In this document: positions 7,969 to 15,003 of the stretch, piece by piece
How positions within the stretch are numbered: position 1 is the stretch's first letter
How the letters are laid out: every line of letters begins with the position of its first letter
Source of the DNA: an uncultured Actinomycetes bacterium
GTDB lineage: Bacteria; Actinomycetota; Thermoleophilia; Gaiellales; Gaiellaceae
Direction: 5' to 3'
Assembly: GCA_963834825.1 (NCBI GenBank)
Contig: CAWICZ010000010.1
Location: 47,266-111,265 of the forward strand
Length of the DNA stretch: 64,000 bases
Notes under the pieces: generated by a model
The model's input: the letters and a program-made list of their open reading frames with translations, nothing else
Databases searched by the model: none
What the model was told of the DNA's origin: nothing
Program-made: the position numbers and the translations under genes

Positions 7969-7987
7969 CTACACTGCCCCTGCTCCT

Positions 7988-8061
<74 letters not shown>

Positions 8062-8415
8062 TCTCGTCTATCCGCTCAACCACGCCAAATCTGCTGCGGC
8101 CACATCGATGTCGGATCACCGTTCGTCGGGTCGTGGAACGGCTTTTGGAACGTTCATGGCGACAGACAGCGTCTCCATTCCGCACTCGGGGGGCTTTTCT
8201 GGTCGTTCGGGGGGTGTATTCCCGACCCCATCGGCGTAGTGTCGGAGCCGCTCGCGGGGTTTGTAGCAATTGAAGCGGCTGCGATCGGCGCAACGGTCAA
8301 GGCCGCTTTGGGCGGGCCTCGTGACACTCGGGATCCGGTAGGAGAAGCTCCTTAGCTGTTGCTGCATTGGCAGCGCTCACCTCCCGGCTGTGGCCAGTTC
8401 AACAGGGAGGGTGAG

Positions 8416-8796
8416 ATGACCGAACCAGTCGACCTCCCAGCTGCGGCTCCACCCGAGCCGCCGTACGGAGTTCCGCTGGAAGTGCCGGAAGCCGCACCAG
8501 CGAGGAAAGGCCACGGTCCGGGCCGACGGTTCGCGGAATGGCTCGGCACCAGAATCGGTGAGGTTCTCGGGGCGGTGGGTTTATTCCCGCTGCTCATGGC
8601 GACGATGGGCACCGGCATCTGGCTCCTCCTTGACGGAGAAGGCTACGAGTGGGTGTTCGCGGGCACCTTCGGGGTATTCGCCTTCATCGGGGCGTTCTTC
8701 CTCGCGGCAGGGTGGTTCGGGGTGCTGTTCTTCCGCTACTGGCCGCTGTTCGTCCTGGGCATAGGCGCCTTCATCGCCTGGAAGGCACTGACTTAG
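8416..8796 (+). CDS. Small polytopic membrane protein (126 aa), first gene of the island operon
   Basis: RBS AGGGAGGG sits 5 nt before the ATG at 8416. A Pro-rich cytosolic head is followed by three or four hydrophobic helices (VLGAVGLFPLLMATMGTGIWLLL, WVFAGTFGVFAFIGAFFLAAGWFGVLFF, WPLFVLGIGAFIAW). The stop lies 6 nt before the next start. Confidence 0.65.
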   Translation: MTEPVDLPAAAPPEPPYGVPLEVPEAAPARKGHGPGRRFAEWLGTRIGEVLGAVGLFPLLMATMGTGIWLLLDGEGYEWVFAGTFGVFAFIGAFFLAAGWFGVLFFRYWPLFVLGIGAFIAWKALT

Positions 8797-8802
8797 GACG
8801 CG

Positions 8803-11781
8803 ATGAAGGCTCGCACCGCCTTGGAGAAGACCTTCGAGCCATGGGCCGCCTGGAAGCCGTGCGCCGACAGCGACGCCTCCGTAGCTCTGGAGCGCCTGCG
8901 GGGCGAGGCGCCGCTCTTCTTTGCCGGCTCCGAGATCGTCGGCGCTCGCTGCGCCGACCTCTCCTTCTACGGCGCGCATCGCCTGCTCGACCTCAGCCTT
9001 GAGCGCCGCGGCAACGAGGAACGCGCCTTCGTCTTGCACGGCCCGGAAGAGACTCGCTGGCTCGACGGGAAGTCGGCTCCAATCCACGAGACCAACGAAG
9101 CCGAGTCGCTTGCATTGAGCGACGCCACTGTCCACGACTACGTCCGCTTCTTCTTCTACTTCGTGCGCAGTGACGACGGCCCCTTCGTCCTCATCGAGTC
9201 GCCCGACGAGATCGAAATCGACGACGACCCCGGCCAGCCCGAGCACGACGGGGAGTCGGCGGAAGCCGATGCCACGGAACTGCCCCAGCGTCTGGCAGCC
9301 ATCCGGAGCCGGGTCACTCCCCTAACGACTCGCACGATCGACGACGACGGCCGCTGGATCATCGACTGCTTCGTCGCCTACGCCGGCACGGTCTTCATGC
9401 CAACCCTGGCCGTCGGGTCGAGCGGCCTGGTCGACATGGAAGAGGAACGGCCGGCTGGAGAGCTCGACGGATTGACAGCTCCAGAGTGCGCCCCGCTCGA
9501 GCTCGCCCCGGTGTACGGAGGCCCCGGGTCCGGGTCGTACCGAGGCGGCCCTATTGTCTTGGAACGGCCGAACCAGCTGCCCGGTTTGCATCAGGACGGT
9601 CCCGTCATCGCCTTGGATCGCAATGGCGACGGTGAGGGAGCCACCCCGACGCTCCCCACGGAACAGGACGAGCGGGTGGTCGAGGTGCTCGACGACTCTG
9701 GAGAGTTGCCGCGTGATCGGGACGTGACCGAAGCGATCGTTTCCGTGCTTCTCGAAGACGCCATCCGAGAGCGGGACGGCGCCGGCGGGGGCGGTGACCT
9801 CCTGCTGCGGCACTTCAACTCTGAGACGGGTACGGACAAGCCGATCGAGCGGCTGGCCCGGATCGTGTCGAGCTCCGTTCCGGTGATCATCATCGAGTCG
9901 GACATCCCCTTCGTCGAGGACTTCGTCGTCGGGCTGATCGACGGTCCGAATGAAGCTGTCACTGCCGGCGACATCGTGCGAGCGAGCGTCGTCCCGGGGG
10001 ACGAGCTTCGCTGCCTGGTCGACTACGCGAGCACGGGGACGAGCTTGCACCTGATCTCGTTCCACGCCTACCGTGGGCTGTTCGACGCGGAGCGAACTGC
10101 GCACGAGCTCGCGCTTGGCGATGCAGCGGTGTTGATCGGATGCGAACGATCGTCCGACGTGCCGGAGCCACTGAGGAGGATTGCCGACCTCGTCCTCACC
10201 TTCCCCCGAATCGACCGCGGACGCTTCGCCCGCGTCTTCGAGCGTGTCTTCGGGGTCAAGCCGACGCCGGGCTGGGACGCCTCGGGCGCGGATTGGACTC
10301 GGTACCTCGTACCGGCCGACTTTCACACGCCGCGACGGCTTCGCCTCAACCCGGATCAGGCTTTGGAGCACCTGAGAAGGCGAATCGAGACTCGCCTCAA
10401 GAGCGTCACGCCCGATATCGGCCCGCGGCTGAGCGAGCTCCACGGCCTGGGCGAGGCTCGCCAGATCTGCGAGGACCTGATCGCCGACATCCGCGCCGCT
10501 CAAGCCGGCCGAATCCCGTGGACCGCCGTGGACAGGGGGATGCTCCTCGTCGGCCCGCCGGGAACCGGCAAGACGACGCTCGCCCGTGCGCTCGCGAAGG
10601 AGTGCGGCATCAAGTTCGTCGTCGCTAGCGCGGCCGGCTGGCAGTCGGCGGGCTACCTCGACTCTCATCTTCGCGCCATGCGCGCCGACTTCGCCGAAGC
10701 GCGTCGCCATGCCCCGGCGATCCTCTTCATCGACGAGATCGACGGCATCGGCAGTCGCGCGCAGCTGGGCGGAGACAACAGCGCCTCGTATCAGACCGAT
10801 GTCATCAACGCGCTCCTCGAGCAGGTTCAAGGAATCACGACCGTCGATCCCGTGATCGTGATCGGGGCGACCAACTATCCCGAGAACGTCGATCCCGCGC
10901 TCCGCCGGTCGGGACGGCTCGACCAGATCGTCGAGCTCCCGCTGCCCAACATCGCGAGCCTCGAGCAGATCTTCGAGTACTACCTCGGGTCGTATCGGGC
11001 CCGAAACGAGGTCGGGCGGGGCGTCAAGACGCGGCTCCTGGCAGAGCTGGGCCTGGGATCGACCGGTGCCGACGTGGAGCTCTTCGTGCGCGGCGCCGCC
11101 CGCCGCGCCCGCCGCGCCGGGCGGAAGATCAAGCAGGAAGACCTGCTGGCGGAGATCACTCGGCGCCCCCGTCGTCCGGACAGCGCTCCTCGGCTCGGAC
11201 CTGAAGAGATGCGGCGTGTGGCGGTCCACGAAGCCGGCCACGCCCTCGCCCGACTCACCAGCTCGACCCAGGGACAAGACCTCACCTTCGTAACGATCGT
11301 CCCACGCATGGACGGCTCGCTCGGCTTCGTCGCAGCGGTGCCGCCGGACGGCTACGTCTCCACCCGCCGCACGATGCTGGAGGAGCTCGAGACCGTGCTG
11401 GCCGGCCGAGCCGCCGAGGAGATCGTCTACGGCACCGACGACATCGGCGGCGGAGCCGGAGGGCCGAGCAGGACCAGCGACCTCGCAGTCGCGACCCGGC
11501 TGGCCGAGCTCATCGTCTGCCAGTCAGGGCTCGGCGACGACGACGCGCTGCACTGGACCTCGGAGCCGACGCCCGCCCAGGAGAAGCAGATCGGCGCGAT
11601 GCTCGGCAAGGCCTACGGCAACATCGTCGCGCGCCTCGAGGACCAGCGCGAGCTGCTCGACCGCATCGTCGAGGTCCTCGAGGAGAAGCAGGAGCTGAGC
11701 GGGACTGAGCTGCGTCAGCTGCTCGGGAAGAGCAACGGGGCCAGCGTAGGCGCGCAAGACCAAGCACAACCAGACGCATGA
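8803..11781 (+). CDS. FtsH-like AAA+ ATPase / M41 zinc metalloprotease lacking a transmembrane anchor, with a roughly 560-aa unassigned N-terminal region
   Basis: Motifs present: Walker A GPPGTGKT (10552-10575), Walker B ILFIDEID (10720-10743), SRH ATNYPENVDPALRRSGRLD, zinc motif HEAGH (11227-11241), FtsH-like IVPRMDGSLGF, AGRAAEE and SDLAVAT. No hydrophobic helix occurs in the first 580 aa. Residues around 355-485 (VPVIIIESD...VLIGCERSSDVPEPLRRIADLVLTFPRIDRGRF) look like a degenerate Walker-A-less AAA module. Confidence 0.85.
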   Translation: MKARTALEKTFEPWAAWKPCADSDASVALERLRGEAPLFFAGSEIVGARCADLSFYGAHRLLDLSLERRGNEERAFVLHGPEETRWLDGKSAPIHETNEAESLALSDATVHDYVRFFFYFVRSDDGPFVLIESPDEIEIDDDPGQPEHDGESAEADATELPQRLAAIRSRVTPLTTRTIDDDGRWIIDCFVAYAGTVFMPTLAVGSSGLVDMEEERPAGELDGLTAPECAPLELAPVYGGPGSGSYRGGPIVLERPNQLPGLHQDGPVIALDRNGDGEGATPTLPTEQDERVVEVLDDSGELPRDRDVTEAIVSVLLEDAIRERDGAGGGGDLLLRHFNSETGTDKPIERLARIVSSSVPVIIIESDIPFVEDFVVGLIDGPNEAVTAGDIVRASVVPGDELRCLVDYASTGTSLHLISFHAYRGLFDAERTAHELALGDAAVLIGCERSSDVPEPLRRIADLVLTFPRIDRGRFARVFERVFGVKPTPGWDASGADWTRYLVPADFHTPRRLRLNPDQALEHLRRRIETRLKSVTPDIGPRLSELHGLGEARQICEDLIADIRAAQAGRIPWTAVDRGMLLVGPPGTGKTTLARALAKECGIKFVVASAAGWQSAGYLDSHLRAMRADFAEARRHAPAILFIDEIDGIGSRAQLGGDNSASYQTDVINALLEQVQGITTVDPVIVIGATNYPENVDPALRRSGRLDQIVELPLPNIASLEQIFEYYLGSYRARNEVGRGVKTRLLAELGLGSTGADVELFVRGAARRARRAGRKIKQEDLLAEITRRPRRPDSAPRLGPEEMRRVAVHEAGHALARLTSSTQGQDLTFVTIVPRMDGSLGFVAAVPPDGYVSTRRTMLEELETVLAGRAAEEIVYGTDDIGGGAGGPSRTSDLAVATRLAELIVCQSGLGDDDALHWTSEPTPAQEKQIGAMLGKAYGNIVARLEDQRELLDRIVEVLEEKQELSGTELRQLLGKSNGASVGAQDQAQPDA

Positions 11782-11788
11782 GAAGGGA

Positions 11789-14146
11789 TTGCAGATGGCA
11801 ATGACAGCGACCGTTGGAGCGCCGCCCCCGCCTCCGCAAAGCCCCGTCGACCGCCTTAAGAAGGCCGTCGAGAACGGGGAGCGCTTCGTCGGTATCGACT
11901 ACACACCAACCTTCGACGCCGAGGTGATCCAAGGTTTGGTTCTCGGCGCCAGGGCCGACTGCGGCGTCCAGCTCGAATCCGTCACGATTGCCGGCAGCCT
12001 GAATCTCAAGGATGCGCGCGGTGCCTCAGGCGGGCCGTGCAACGCGTTGATTATGCACGACTGCATTCTGGAGGGTCCAGGCGCCGATGCTCCCACCGGC
12101 AGCCCCGGCATCGATGCCAGGCACAGCTACCTGCAGCGGCTCTCCCTCGTTAACTGTCGGTCGAACGGCCTAGATGTCTCGAGCGCGGTAATCGTGGGCG
12201 ACCTGAAGCTCGACGGGCTTGGCCCACTCGAGCGGTCTGTCGGCGAGATGTCGCGCGACGACGCCAGCGAAGAGGACGATGGCCAACAGCGATCTTGCTT
12301 GGTCAGGGCCCAAGGCGTGCGCATTGGAGGGTCACTCACGCTGCGCCGTGCGAGCCTCAGCTTGCCGCTGGGCGACGCGACAGCGGTTGTCGTTCCTCCC
12401 TCGCCCGATGCAGAGGACTCTGGGAATGTTTTCAAGCGATACGGGCTCGATCTCGAAGATGCTCAGATCAATGGATCGCTCACGCTAGGCCCTAAATTCA
12501 CTTCAGTGGGCGGAGTTTGCCTCAGCGGGGCCAGTATCGGCGGCACGCTGTCGATCGACGCGTCCGCCGCGCCGATCGAACGCCTCGACGCAACCACACT
12601 CAAAGTCGGCGGAGATTTGTCGCTTTCCGGATCGGTCTCGGTGGCCGATTTCTCAGGCAGCATGATCGATGGTCAGGTGGCACTCGGCGAGCAAGCCGCG
12701 GAAGGCGAGGAAACCAAGGTACCGCTTTACCTGACGAGCCTGAATGTCAGCGTCGCCGTCCTGAAGCTTGCCGACTCACGCGTTGGGCGCGGCCTCAGGG
12801 TGACACGGGTCGTTACCCCAACTTTCCCCGTCACAATCGATTGGAGCACAAAACCGCTCCGCATCCGCACCTTCCAGCTCGCCTGTTATCCCGGCTGGTT
12901 GCTGGCACAGGCTTTGTTCAAGCCGAAGTCCGGATCCGGTCTCGCGTTACTCGCCTTCTTGTATCAGCCTCGGTACGCGCCCGATGAGTCCCCCATCGTC
13001 GTCCTCGGAGGTCGATCGGACCCGATCCACGAGCTCAACGATCAGGGCTTCCTTGCGATCACCACCAGCGAACAAGCCGCGGAGTACCTCACTTTCTTCT
13101 GCACCCATATCTTGGGAGACGAGGGAGCGTTCATGAGAGCGTTCATGATCATCCCAGGCAGCGTCGACGTACGCCCGCGCGAGGACGGTCCAGGATGGCA
13201 CGCGACGGCGCAGGTTTCGTACGGTGCCGACCTCTTCAAAGCCGGCTTTCGGATCGACCCCTCCGGCGAAGTCGAGATGGTGAGCGATAAGCCGATCGGT
13301 AGGGCGCCAGCCAGCCCCCGTCCGCTCTACGCCCCTCCGATCAGCTGGCTTGAAGGAGACGGTTCCGACTGGCAGGACCGCCCGGACAAGCCGAACCCGG
13401 ACTGGCCGGTCTCGTCGCCTCTCGGCCCGAGCTCTGCTTGGTTTGAGCCCGAAACCGAGGGCGAAGACGGCGAAATCTGGAACGCCCTCCGGAAGAAACA
13501 AGAGACGCTAGGCCCCTCCATTGTCCTGCCGTGGCCCGGACGTCCTAGGCCGCGGATCGACCTGAAGGGTCTCAGAGTCTCCGGGCTCGACGACGACGAC
13601 GGAAGAGCTTGGTTTGCGGGTCGGAACTTCGACCTCGACAAGGCCGTGACCGGAGAGGTCGGAATAAGGCCGACGCTCCAGCTCATGCTCAGTGGGTTCG
13701 AGTACGACCGCATTAGCGACCGGCCGGACCCGACACCGCGGACCGATGTCTTGGGGCAGGAGTTGTCCGACAGTGACTCCCCAGCGCCTGAGGAGGCGGC
13801 GAAGGAACCCGCGAAGGAACGCTCACTCTTCCAAAGACTCCGTTCGTTCTTACATTCGGACCCAGCCGAGCGCTTGAAGGCCAGACGCTACTGGTTCAAG
13901 GCCCAATACAAGAAGTATCCACCGACCGAAGAGGAGTACCGTCCGCAGCCCCATGAACAGCTCGCCAGAGTCTGGCGGGCGGCGGGTCACCTCAAGAACG
14001 CTGACGACATCACAATCGACAAGCTTGAGTTGGAGAAGATGAAGCTCAAGCTCTCAAGGCGCGGTTTGTCGGCGGTGGCCGAAATTCTGGCATCACGTTT
14101 CGCAGCGGGGCGCGGCCGGTTTACATTTTCTTCGGGTTCGGGCTGA
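11789..14146 (+). CDS. Beta-helix-like repeat protein with a central domain paralogous to the protease N-terminus; C-terminal membrane module displaced by frameshifts
   Basis: The [IV]xGxLxL motif recurs seven times (IAGSLNL, IVGDLKL, IGGSLTL, INGSLTL, IGGTLSI, VGGDLSL, IDGQVAL). The C-terminal LSGFEYDRI...RRYWF...YRPQPHEQLARVWRAAGH matches, from memory, the actinobacterial pentapeptide-like 'membrane-associated oxidoreductase' family. The start is 7 nt after the upstream stop. Confidence 0.75.
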   Translation: MQMAMTATVGAPPPPPQSPVDRLKKAVENGERFVGIDYTPTFDAEVIQGLVLGARADCGVQLESVTIAGSLNLKDARGASGGPCNALIMHDCILEGPGADAPTGSPGIDARHSYLQRLSLVNCRSNGLDVSSAVIVGDLKLDGLGPLERSVGEMSRDDASEEDDGQQRSCLVRAQGVRIGGSLTLRRASLSLPLGDATAVVVPPSPDAEDSGNVFKRYGLDLEDAQINGSLTLGPKFTSVGGVCLSGASIGGTLSIDASAAPIERLDATTLKVGGDLSLSGSVSVADFSGSMIDGQVALGEQAAEGEETKVPLYLTSLNVSVAVLKLADSRVGRGLRVTRVVTPTFPVTIDWSTKPLRIRTFQLACYPGWLLAQALFKPKSGSGLALLAFLYQPRYAPDESPIVVLGGRSDPIHELNDQGFLAITTSEQAAEYLTFFCTHILGDEGAFMRAFMIIPGSVDVRPREDGPGWHATAQVSYGADLFKAGFRIDPSGEVEMVSDKPIGRAPASPRPLYAPPISWLEGDGSDWQDRPDKPNPDWPVSSPLGPSSAWFEPETEGEDGEIWNALRKKQETLGPSIVLPWPGRPRPRIDLKGLRVSGLDDDDGRAWFAGRNFDLDKAVTGEVGIRPTLQLMLSGFEYDRISDRPDPTPRTDVLGQELSDSDSPAPEEAAKEPAKERSLFQRLRSFLHSDPAERLKARRYWFKAQYKKYPPTEEEYRPQPHEQLARVWRAAGHLKNADDITIDKLELEKMKLKLSRRGLSAVAEILASRFAAGRGRFTFSSGSG

Positions 14147-14551
14147 AGCCGTGGCGCGCTACGGGAACCCTGGTCTTGTGGTGGCTGATTGGCGTGCTCG
14201 CGATTTTCGGGTCTCTTAAGCGCGGACGTGCTTAAGGCGGAGGCATCGGCCGTTACAACAGCTGTCGCGAGTGAGGAGCGCGTCGTCGTCGAGGAGGCGA
14301 CCGCCGGGGCAGAAACCGAGGAGATCCCATGCGGAGATCACATCAATGTGTTCGTCTACCCGCTCGACGTGATGATCCCGCTTCTCGACCTGCATCAGGA
14401 GTCGCGCTGCGACGTGTCGATCAAGAACTGTGGCTTCGGCGTGCTAAAGGGCTGTCATATGCCGTCTTGGCTGGTTAGATCATTTCTCGGGTTCATCCTC
14501 ACTGGTCCGGCGTCGTGCGGCGGCAGACCGAGAGATGAACCGCGACCCTAG
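14029..14551 (+). pseudogene. Out-of-frame C-terminal membrane module of the 11789 gene
   Basis: Frame 1 (14029-14235, no start codon) encodes PVYIFFGFGLKPWRATGTLVLWWLIGVLAIFG, the family GYGYRPWRA-plus-TM motif. Frame 2 (ORF 14189-14551, same frame as 11789-14146) encodes INVFVYPLDVMIPLLDLHQE, the family YxLDxxxPxxDLxQ motif. Two in-frame TGA codons separate the frame-2 parts. Confidence 0.5.
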
Positions 14552-14957
14552 GTCAGCGACACGGCGCTCCTGACAGCATCGTCCCGTCGCGAGGGCGGCC
14601 GGAAGAGCTGCTTCCGGTCGGCCTCGCGAGCCCGCCTTCGGCGTGCGGGTCGCGACCACCGTCTGTCGCCTCCACGTTCGGGGCACGGTCCGGTGATGCT
14701 GAGGCCAACCTCCTGGCCGACCGCCTCCTTGAGTAGCTCGTCGTAGTACGGCGCCAGGATTGCGTTCCTGATTCGCGTGCCGCCGATGTCCGCGAAGTGG
14801 CGCCGCATGAATCCCGCCTGCTGACAGCCGTTCTGGAACGCTCGTGGAACGCGCGGCGGCAACCGGTGGTGAATACCGGCGAAGGCCAGGACCGCGAAAG
14901 CCGCGCACGAGCGACCAACGGAGCCGGCGAGAACGCGCGGCAAACCATGGCGCGGAA

Positions 14958-15003
14958 CTGTCCCGCCGGAGGTCGCGGGTTCGAGTCCCGTCGCTCCCGT
15001 CTC
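14958..15003 (+). repeat. Copy of the tRNA-Asp 3-prime half (att-like direct repeat 2)
   Basis: This 46-nt stretch aligns to 8020-8065 with one mismatch (14963 C versus 8025 A). Positions 14964-15003 are identical to 8026-8065. No acceptor or D arm lies upstream. Confidence 0.85.

Follow-up and report, generated by a model that had tools for sequence, protein, structure and literature searches.

Two adjacent genes, A and B, of a 64,000-nucleotide stretch of DNA from an uncultured Actinomycetes bacterium of the Gaiellaceae (GenBank assembly GCA_963834825.1, contig CAWICZ010000010.1, positions 47,266 to 111,265 of the forward strand; the whole stretch is referred to as the window) encode an FtsH-like protease and a repeat protein of the β-helix type, both of which harbour a copy of one and the same homologous domain of about 160 residues, designated SHD. 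We consider SHD a bona fide, previously uncatalogued α+β domain which moves as a module among NTPase-centred proteins of the conflict or immune type. The reading we favour, and to which we accord an even chance of being correct, is that SHD constitutes a homotypic adaptor resembling the EADs, which would couple a constant protease to variable partners. The features of both genes on which the following description relies are listed below.

8803 to 11781, forward strand: gene A, 992 residues, soluble FtsH-like protease (Pfam, motifs and at least 148 homologues)
8923 to 9477, forward strand: SHD copy of A, residues ~41-225 (BLASTP, phmmer, HHalign, alignment, hidden Markov model (HMM) and structure model)
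9199 to 9333, forward strand: acidic, partly helical insert in the SHD of A, residues 133-177 (alignment, composition and model)
9517 to 9708, forward strand: predicted disordered Gly/Pro/acidic linker, residues 239-302, i.e. 64 residues (predicted local distance difference test score, pLDDT, ~30)
9715 to 10422, forward strand: α/β AAA+-like domain without Walker A, residues 305-540 (Foldseek and motif scan)
10525 to 11727, forward strand: active AAA+ ATPase plus M41 zinc-peptidase core (Pfam, NCBIfam and motifs)
11789 to 14146, forward strand: gene B, open frame of 785 residues, in the order β-helix repeats, SHD, linker and start of the C-terminal transmembrane (TM) module
11846 to 12859, forward strand: N-terminal β-helix-type repeat region of B, "BN" (BN HMM built from B-family homologues, 328 and 104 bits)
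12860 to 13318, forward strand: SHD copy of B, residues ~358-510 (HMM, 152 bits, and model)
13652 to 14532, forward strand: C-terminal membrane module of B, "BC" (tblastn of the homologues P0001 and P0002 and BC HMM)

The original prediction, made from the sequence alone, had placed a shared domain at residues 75-220 of A (nt 9025-9462) and residues 401-505 of B (nt 12989-13303); nucleotide and residue numbers correspond to each other, and both peptide blocks quoted in its support are found in the translations. A BLASTP comparison of full-length A with full-length B aligns residues 87-258 of the former with residues 406-534 of the latter (E=1e-5, 23% identity) and is interrupted by one single gap of 45 residues. 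The acidic insert of about 45 residues that had been assigned to the protease copy lies at A 133-177. For the two predicted segments the Smith-Waterman score amounts to 82 compared to 27.5 ± 4.7 in 2,000 shuffles (z=11.5), none of which reaches this value. Used as a phmmer query, the domain of B matches each of the 120 listed homologues of the protease family with up to 52 bits, the matches always falling at about residues 80-220 and usually consisting of two blocks around a variable insert. HHalign of the domain alignment of the protease family against that of the B family yields a probability of 99.8% over 110 columns (E=8e-28), which lies far above the 50% below which the similarity was to be dismissed. 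The claim of a domain common to both proteins is thus borne out, as is the statement that its hosts are otherwise unrelated, one being a tandem-AAA+/M41 protease and the other a β-helix repeat protein with a C-terminal TM module.

The AlphaFold2 model of the SHD of B, calculated from a mixed alignment, reaches a pLDDT of 90.2 and a predicted template modelling score of 0.86. It comprises strands at 16-21, 29-35, 44-50 and 61-63, helices at 69-76 and 85-98, and strands at 118-121, 128-136, 139-147 and 153-163 (model numbering). The model of the SHD of A, for which sequences of the protease family only were used, exceeds a pLDDT of 90 over the domain and displays the same order of four strands, two helices and four strands; the predicted folds of the two copies accordingly agree. 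In addition, it contains an N-terminal helix and a further helix within the acidic insert. This insert comprises 12 Asp/Glu and 4 Lys/Arg residues, with low pLDDT at residues 144-153 followed by a helix at residues 160-170; it is typical of the protease family, varies in length and is missing in one member, P0047. While the two predicted blocks proved real, the domain limits had been set too narrowly, since SHD starts about 35 to 45 residues earlier and includes a conserved "FY..H.L.EL" strand pair. In A, the SHD HMM matches with an envelope of residues 28-232 of the stop-to-stop open reading frame (ORF) and 239 bits. At ~13127-13138 the SHD of B carries a window-specific tandem duplication of the four residues "AFMR" (GDEGAFMRAFMII; "GDEGAFxI" in the homologues), located beside the conserved G-x-F strand.

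The adjacent SHD copies of A and B share 20-25% identity, and each of them falls within the clade of its own host family. A recent local duplication of, or gene conversion between, the two copies is therefore rejected, and the term "paralogous", which had been applied to them, holds in the sense of homology while its implication of a local duplication does not.

SHD is not covered by the family libraries searched. In Pfam, 39 isolated domains gave nothing at E<=5 beyond single spurious matches, and in 17 full-length carriers no Pfam model extends over the domain; NCBIfam and PADLOC as well as a sequence search of the PDB with the SHD profile returned no match. The Foldseek search envisaged in the original prediction was performed with the SHD model against PDB and BFVD and revealed no credible relative (best E ~0.02-0.03 at a template modelling score of ~0.25); the matches to NTF2-like, PUR, cystatin and β-propeller folds are weak and were judged noise. 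No name for SHD was found in the open-access literature, although it may be named elsewhere. When 1.84 billion representative proteins (clusters at 50% identity) were searched exhaustively with the profile, 2,854 representative carriers emerged at E<=1e-3, 2,201 of them at E<=1e-10. As a survey of the domain on other proteins reveals, it occurs together with TIR, NB-ARC, nSTAND1, NACHT, TPR, ankyrin, WD40 and TM modules, in the following architectures, of which ii comprises the STAND/NLR-like NTPases.

Architecture i: one or two N-terminal SHDs on a tandem-AAA+/M41 protease
Architecture ii: TIR-NB-ARC-TPR-SHDx3 (P0130) and TIR-NB-ARC-SHD (P0181)
Architecture ii: nSTAND1-ankyrin-SHDx2-3 (P0132, P0136, L019, L022)
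Architecture ii: nSTAND1-WD40-SHD (L008, P0196)
Architecture ii: SHD-AAA_16/nSTAND5-TPR (P0151, P0154, L007)
Architecture ii: SHD-DUF4062-NACHT-TPR (P0225)
Architecture iii: BN-SHD-BC membrane proteins
Architecture iv: SHD-TPR-TM proteins

Across its carriers SHD is located N-terminally, C-terminally or in tandem. The same conserved columns recur in every architecture class and are mostly occupied by hydrophobic residues, Gly and Pro. The best conserved polar columns, N75 (83%), D181 (81%) and H72 (67%), are not invariant, which renders an enzymatic role of SHD unlikely.

Within A, SHD is followed by the disordered linker, a putative degenerate AAA+ domain, an active AAA+ domain and Peptidase_M41. 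Pfam assigns AAA to residues 580-714 (E=1.4e-34, 119.8 bits) and Peptidase_M41 to residues 800-971 (E=6.5e-21, 75.5 bits), both above cut-off, and the expected motifs are present in the form of Walker A (GPPGTGKT at 584), Walker B (ILFIDE at 640), PALRRSGR and HEAGH at 809. In the first ~570 residues no family is recognised in Pfam. The region 305-540 produces top Foldseek matches which are nearly all AAA+ ATPases (TRIP13, RuvB, RFC, Lon, Vps4, Cdc48), each of them individually weak (E 2e-3 to 5e-2); a motif scan detects no P-loop or Walker A in this middle region, and neither Pfam nor a PDB sequence search gives a match. There is no TM segment (maximum 19-residue hydropathy 1.7) and no Pfam match to FtsH_ext. 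On the basis of the missing TM segment and of the domain order we classify A as a soluble tandem-AAA+ FtsH-like protease. Homologues of the N-terminal region number at least 148, are mostly 900-970 residues long and occur in Actinomycetota (Mycobacterium and Mycolicibacterium among them), Acidimicrobiia and some Proteobacteria. SHD is present in 120 of the 120 listed members of this family, some of which possess two N-terminal copies.

For B, no match was obtained in Pfam, NCBIfam or PADLOC. Its N-terminal 340 residues are repetitive; B itself lacks a Pfam pentapeptide match at E<=1, the pentapeptide models are significant neither on B nor on its close homologues, and the distant homologue P0009 weakly matches Pentapeptide_3 (E=0.17). 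The BC module consists of YRPQP..ARVWRAAG, a TM helix, CGD..YPLDVMIPLLDLxQExxC, a second TM helix and RRQTER. In the homologues checked no Pfam model covers BN or BC, and in the open-access literature no name for the TM module was found, although it may be named elsewhere. In the window, BC is disrupted from ~14125 (to 14550) by in-frame stops at 14144 and ~14183, with the tail lying in another frame (14458-14532); tblastn of P0001 and P0002 continues past these stops, and the BC HMM matches spread over three ORFs. The 5.3 kb of A and B upstream of the disruption are intact. The 3' end of B is either decaying, i.e. on the way to a pseudogene, or locally mis-assembled; in the latter case B would be an intact membrane protein of about 915 residues. 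The B homologue of locus L003 is split within the same module while that of L024 is intact. The split of the former, together with split protease ORFs in the metagenome-assembled genome loci L009, L010, L014 and L015, suggests error-prone assemblies.

The clade of B is rare, with nine close homologues of 900-1,200 residues. In the wider BN-BC family, many members of 700-800 residues have BN and BC without SHD, and those of 1,000-1,400 residues accommodate one or two SHDs between the modules. As many members do without it, SHD has been inserted into a pre-existing family of membrane proteins; a minimal SHD-BC protein is represented by P0227 (593 residues). The SHD-less BN-BC family (metagenome loci L025, L028, L040-L061), whose TM module bears the motif CGD..Y.LDV..P..DL.QE..C, is much larger. 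Two B-type genes stand in settings of their own. At L002 (454-9152) such a gene is found beside a divergent pair encoding a 399-residue AAA ATPase and a DUF6414 protein and beside a DNA methylase/Vsr pair, a setting which is defence-island-like and without M41 protease. The B-type gene of L001 (8465-21643) is embedded in DNA rich in mobile elements, with genes of the integrase, DDE transposase, Mu-transposase C-terminal and IstB types around it.

A and B are located on the same strand with 7 nt between the stop of A and the start of B. A Shine-Dalgarno sequence, GAAGGGA, precedes the ATG at 11795, which is the likely start of B. The short spacing and the Shine-Dalgarno sequence ahead of B lead us to regard A and B as an operon. 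Genes for an SHD-bearing protease and a second SHD protein lie in proximity to each other at further loci as well.

Window, L003, L024 and the contigs of P0001 and P0007: SHD-protease with B-type partner
L008 (M. vinylchloridicum): SHD-protease with nSTAND1-WD40-SHD directly upstream
L068: SHD-protease with TIR-NB-ARC-TPR-SHDx3 directly upstream
L070: protease, TIR protein and nSTAND1-WD40-SHD in a row
L071: protease 10 kb from a TIR...SHD protein

The proposal that the shared domain ties the two genes together is hence supported by their spacing, their common orientation and the recurrence of the pair, with the qualification that the tie is facultative, since in an unbiased sample of genomes most SHD-proteases lack a second SHD gene within 10 kb. 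The proteases of the window, L003 and L024, the three B-paired ones of available sequence, are mutual nearest relatives (53-71% identity), which points to an old and stably inherited A-B operon. The proteases of L008 (9938-12709) and L068 (9023-11797) contain SHDs which are 96% identical, while their NLR partners differ and carry one SHD copy in the first case and three in the second; from this the pattern of a constant core with variable partners emerges. The SHDs of the NLR partners share 44-57% identity with the protease SHDs compared to 28-32% with the SHDs of unpaired nSTAND1-ankyrin proteins. They are, consequently, of the protease type, though not specifically nearest to that of their own neighbour protease. 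The locus search made use of a protease-only alignment, as the mixed alignment offered no sufficiently conserved stretch. Since it was the partner that led to several of the paired loci, the frequency of pairing is inflated by ascertainment.

Solo proteases are often encountered in another conserved neighbourhood, which comprises one or two amine oxidases, an unannotated protein of ~850-1,000 residues and a GNAT acetyltransferase (L004 2990-9188, L009 13443-14786, L011 13314-18399, L012 13553-15025, L015 5183-9792; Mycobacterium parmense MPRM_25110 may serve as an example). This hints at a second, possibly non-defence, context of the protease. Furthermore, proteins with a RyR domain, some of them fused to TrkA_N, recur next to the pairs of protease and NLR/TIR protein (L068 12023-14578, L070 2050-3792, L071 17614-18756).

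We favour the interpretation of SHD as an EAD-like adaptor because the pattern of domain occurrence and gene pairing matches the EAD principle of Kaur, Burroughs, Iyer and Aravind (2020, eLife, PMC7159879). According to this interpretation SHD would bind SHD in the manner of the EADs. The soluble tandem-AAA+/M41 protease, displaying its SHD on a long flexible linker, could in this way dock on any neighbour protein which also bears the domain. In the window and its closest relatives the docking partner would be B, a β-helix protein with a C-terminal two-helix membrane anchor, and in other genomes an NLR-like STAND NTPase of the TIR-NB-ARC-TPR or nSTAND1-WD40 type. Docking within the A-B operon would bring the anchorless FtsH-like protease to the membrane-located B, which it might process or unfold there, thereby switching a membrane-active module; alternatively, B may act as anchor and receptor of the protease. 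That A is devoid of a TM anchor and presents SHD on a disordered tether of 64 residues is as expected of a recruitment module. The homology, the agreement of the folds, the distribution of the domain, the adjacency of the genes and the conservation of their pairing are demonstrated; we infer the physical binding of SHD to SHD, the direction of regulation and a role in defence or cell death. In a bolder version, which we put forward tentatively and hold for clearly less probable, SHD represents a widespread and hitherto unrecognised immune or cell-death module by which, via homotypic assembly of the domain, a constant soluble "executioner" protease is recruited in trans by NLR-like sensors (TIR-NB-ARC, nSTAND1) or by a membrane-active β-helix protein. 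This would amount to a prokaryotic analogue of the Death-fold recruitment of proteases to NLR/apoptosome platforms, realised on a fold without solved relative.

Several observations weigh against the adaptor interpretation. The adjacent copies of A and B are, with their 20-25% identity, not mutual nearest relatives, unlike the published EAD pattern, and SHD is about twice the size of a typical EAD. On NLRs it is often found C-terminally and in tandem, which is the usual sensor site and agrees just as well with the sensing of a ligand. When loci were located by means of the protease, solely L008 proved to contain another SHD gene within 10 kb, against 11 loci without one (L004, L006, L009-L012, L014-L018). 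Of the ten B-type SHD genes whose flanks could be used, six lack a neighbouring protease (L001, L002, L027, L031, L033, L034). NLRs with more divergent SHDs are unpaired (L019, L022, L023), and the same applies to L007. Finally, since the frame of B in the window breaks ahead of the TM helices, this particular copy may lack function or result from faulty assembly.

An alternative to which we concede a real though minor chance assumes that SHD binds a common trigger, be it an invader protein, a peptide or a small molecule, which protease, B and NLRs sense separately and without any contact between their SHDs. The frequent occurrence of two to four C-terminal tandem copies on NLR-like NTPases, i.e. 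at the usual place of a sensor module, is in line with this assumption, and so is the unpaired state of most SHD-proteases and many SHD partners. Moreover, the motif L-D/N-G-x-S-x-P-I-H-x-x-N ... Y-x-R-F-F ... G-x-V-E-M-x-D-D-x-P is common to all architecture classes, for which a shared binding site would account. Upstream of SHD, however, the NLRs already possess TPR, ankyrin or WD40 repeats as canonical sensors, and the domain is also encountered N-terminally (SHD-NACHT, SHD-AAA_16), a position held by adaptors and effectors. A sensor confronted with diverse invaders should diversify, yet the partner SHDs adjacent to a protease are specifically of the protease type, and the exchange of NLR partners between near-identical proteases fits recruitment better than parallel sensing. 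The N-domains of AAA+ proteases commonly select substrates or adaptors, as exemplified by the Clp, Lon, FtsH and Cdc48 families. SHD might likewise be an N-domain for substrate recognition or self-assembly of the protease, with the copy of the partner as a mimic which turns the latter into a dedicated substrate, threaded into the AAA+ pore to control its turnover, or into a competitive regulator of assembly; this appears rather unlikely to us. The universal presence of SHD in the listed protease family, compared to its optional presence in the B family, suggests that the protease may be the primary home of the domain, and the family members with two N-terminal SHDs also conform to this idea. 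As it, too, demands an SHD-mediated contact, it overlaps mechanistically with docking, and the wide occurrence of SHD on proteins far from any protease speaks for a protease-independent role.

It is quite improbable, in our judgement, that SHD is a generic structural or oligomerisation domain which is shuffled without any coupling and whose co-occurrence in neighbouring genes merely reflects a shared location in variable islands. Such a scenario would explain that the paired state is a minority and that the copies of A and B diverged anciently, and islands do gather multidomain genes, for instance the integrases and transposases of L001 or the methylase/Vsr and AAA + DUF6414 genes of L002. It is at odds with the eight loci at which a member of the protease family stands beside an SHD gene, in three partner architectures, never on opposite strands and in most cases as immediate neighbours, and with the conservation of the A-B pair across a protease subclade of 53-71% identity. 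For a domain present in only few genes per genome, repeated chance adjacency would seem unlikely. Hardly any credence can be given to the notion that the resemblance between A and B is a matter of chance or composition and that no real domain exists. The raw pairwise alignment, with its 23% identity and its long gap, might taken by itself invite this suspicion, but the HHalign result (99.8%, E=8e-28), the 2,000 unsuccessful shuffles, reciprocal phmmer matches of up to 52 bits, the concordant and confident models and the 2,201 proteins retrieved at E<=1e-10 exclude it.

A and B are contained in a segment whose further features are given below.

7987 to 8063, forward strand: tRNA-Asp (GTC) (ARAGORN), the 3' half of which is the left direct-repeat copy bounding the island
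8013 to 8065, no strand assigned: attL-like left copy of a 53-nt direct repeat (repeat search: 92% identity, ~42 nt exact, spacing 6,938 nt)
8416 to 8796, forward strand: small ORF of 126 residues with hydrophobic segments, directly upstream of A
14951 to 15003, no strand assigned: attR-like right copy of the tRNA-Asp 3'-end repeat (repeat search)

This 6.9-kb segment (7987-15003), with the tRNA-Asp at one side and the 53-nt repeat of the tRNA 3' end, has a G+C content of 0.63-0.66 compared to ~0.70 in the upstream flank and looks like an integrated island. It comprises the small ORF, A and B only. No integrase gene or remnant was detected in the island by a Pfam scan; a remnant suspected at its right end from reverse-strand ORFs was rejected, as Pfam lent no support. 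A phage or prophage origin was likewise rejected, the SHD-protease being absent from IMG/VR contigs. The small ORF encodes a Pro/Ala-rich N-terminus and a strongly hydrophobic C-terminal half (maximum hydropathy 2.2). Pfam gave no match for it, and tblastn found no counterpart in any related locus; as it is conserved in none of these, it was rejected as a third component, and its belonging to the system is doubtful. Judged by their translations, without family search, the flanking ORFs look like methyltransferase/MTHFR-like, serine-protease-like, SnoaL-like and sulfatase genes.

If the adaptor interpretation is correct, at least 2,854 clusters (50% identity) carrying a domain with neither a Pfam model nor a structural relative will join the wiring toolkit by which bacterial sensors are connected to effectors, and an FtsH-like AAA+ protease will have to be considered a recruitable constant component of NLR-type systems. 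To our knowledge, proteolysis by an unfoldase-protease has so far been no recognised output of such systems. With an SHD profile, annotators could assemble candidate systems from giant NTPases, TIR proteins and membrane proteins which now stand in their thousands as "hypothetical", and the compact two-gene A-B operon, whose L024 version is intact, offers a tractable test case. Even if the proposed mechanism were wrong, the domain, its distribution and its confident model would stand as new descriptive facts.

Among known proteins, the pentapeptide-repeat and right-handed β-helix proteins share with B a repetitive sequence, in its case at the N-terminus; B differs from them by its SHD and its C-terminal TM module. 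A shares with canonical FtsH (TIGR01241), which is its best NCBIfam match (203.6 bits, 6e-60), the AAA+ module with Walker A, Walker B and arginine finger as well as the HExxH zinc peptidase. This score remains far below the equivalog cut-off of 600, and, in contrast to canonical FtsH, A lacks N-terminal TM helices and a periplasmic domain and has ~570 extra N-terminal residues which harbour SHD, linker and the putative degenerate AAA+ domain. A further likeness exists to the FtsH of the MoxR-vWA FtsH ternary systems, which Kaur et al. 2020 (PMC7159879) describe as actinobacterial proteins in which an inactive N-terminal AAA+ domain precedes an active one of the FtsH type, a subset having an "additional N-terminal domain". 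Compared by this description, A resembles them in its extra N-terminal domain and its actinobacterial distribution and probably in its tandem AAA+ arrangement, the structural matches of the first AAA+-like domain being weak. The extra domain, however, is said in this paper to be confined to those proteins, whereas SHD is widespread, and A contains an M41 peptidase, while the term "M41" is absent from the paper. Neither MoxR nor vWA was recognised among the genes of the island and of the flanks next to it; the flanks were judged from ORF translations, and solely A and B were scanned against family libraries. Membership in these ternary systems was rejected on this ground.

In PADLOC-DB v2, A is matched only via its AAA core (IetA, TRIP13), its N-terminus remaining uncovered. 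NLR-like antiphage STAND proteins (Avs/bNACHT) resemble the SHD partners in their TIR, NB-ARC, NACHT and nSTAND1 cores combined with TPR, ankyrin or WD40 repeats, and in the island setting. They differ from the system described here inasmuch as the window encodes no STAND NTPase and the effector-like protease is a separate polypeptide, joined by the shared domain only. A close parallel is provided by the EADs. EAD1 to EAD11 and the bDLDs of NTP-dependent conflict systems are treated in PMC7159879 and in Kaur et al. 2021 (PMC8195603), and the principle, as set out in the former, consists in a small non-enzymatic domain which is present on the core NTPase component and again on the product of an adjacent gene, for which homotypic coupling was proposed. 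SHD corresponds to the EADs in that the core NTPase component bears one copy at a terminus and the product of the neighbouring gene contains a second; this adjacency is observed in the window, L003, L024, the P0001 and P0007 contigs, L008, L068 and L070, whereas 11 protease loci are without a second copy within 10 kb. It corresponds to them also in being found on STAND and TIR proteins, in having variable partners and in the homotypic action proposed for it, and may, as a probably non-enzymatic domain, resemble them in this respect too. Yet SHD matches no Pfam EAD or bDLD model, and it is an α+β domain of ~160-200 residues, while most EADs are small and helical. Its core component is a tandem-AAA+/M41 protease instead of VMAP, iSTAND or GAP1, and in B it is internal and not terminal. 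Adjacent copies, closest to each other in the case of the EADs, are not so for A and B and partly so for the NLR partners (44-57%). What is new is a domain family of the adaptor type and its protease-centred pairing, both of which follow a logic already known from EAD-coupled conflict systems rich in NLRs.

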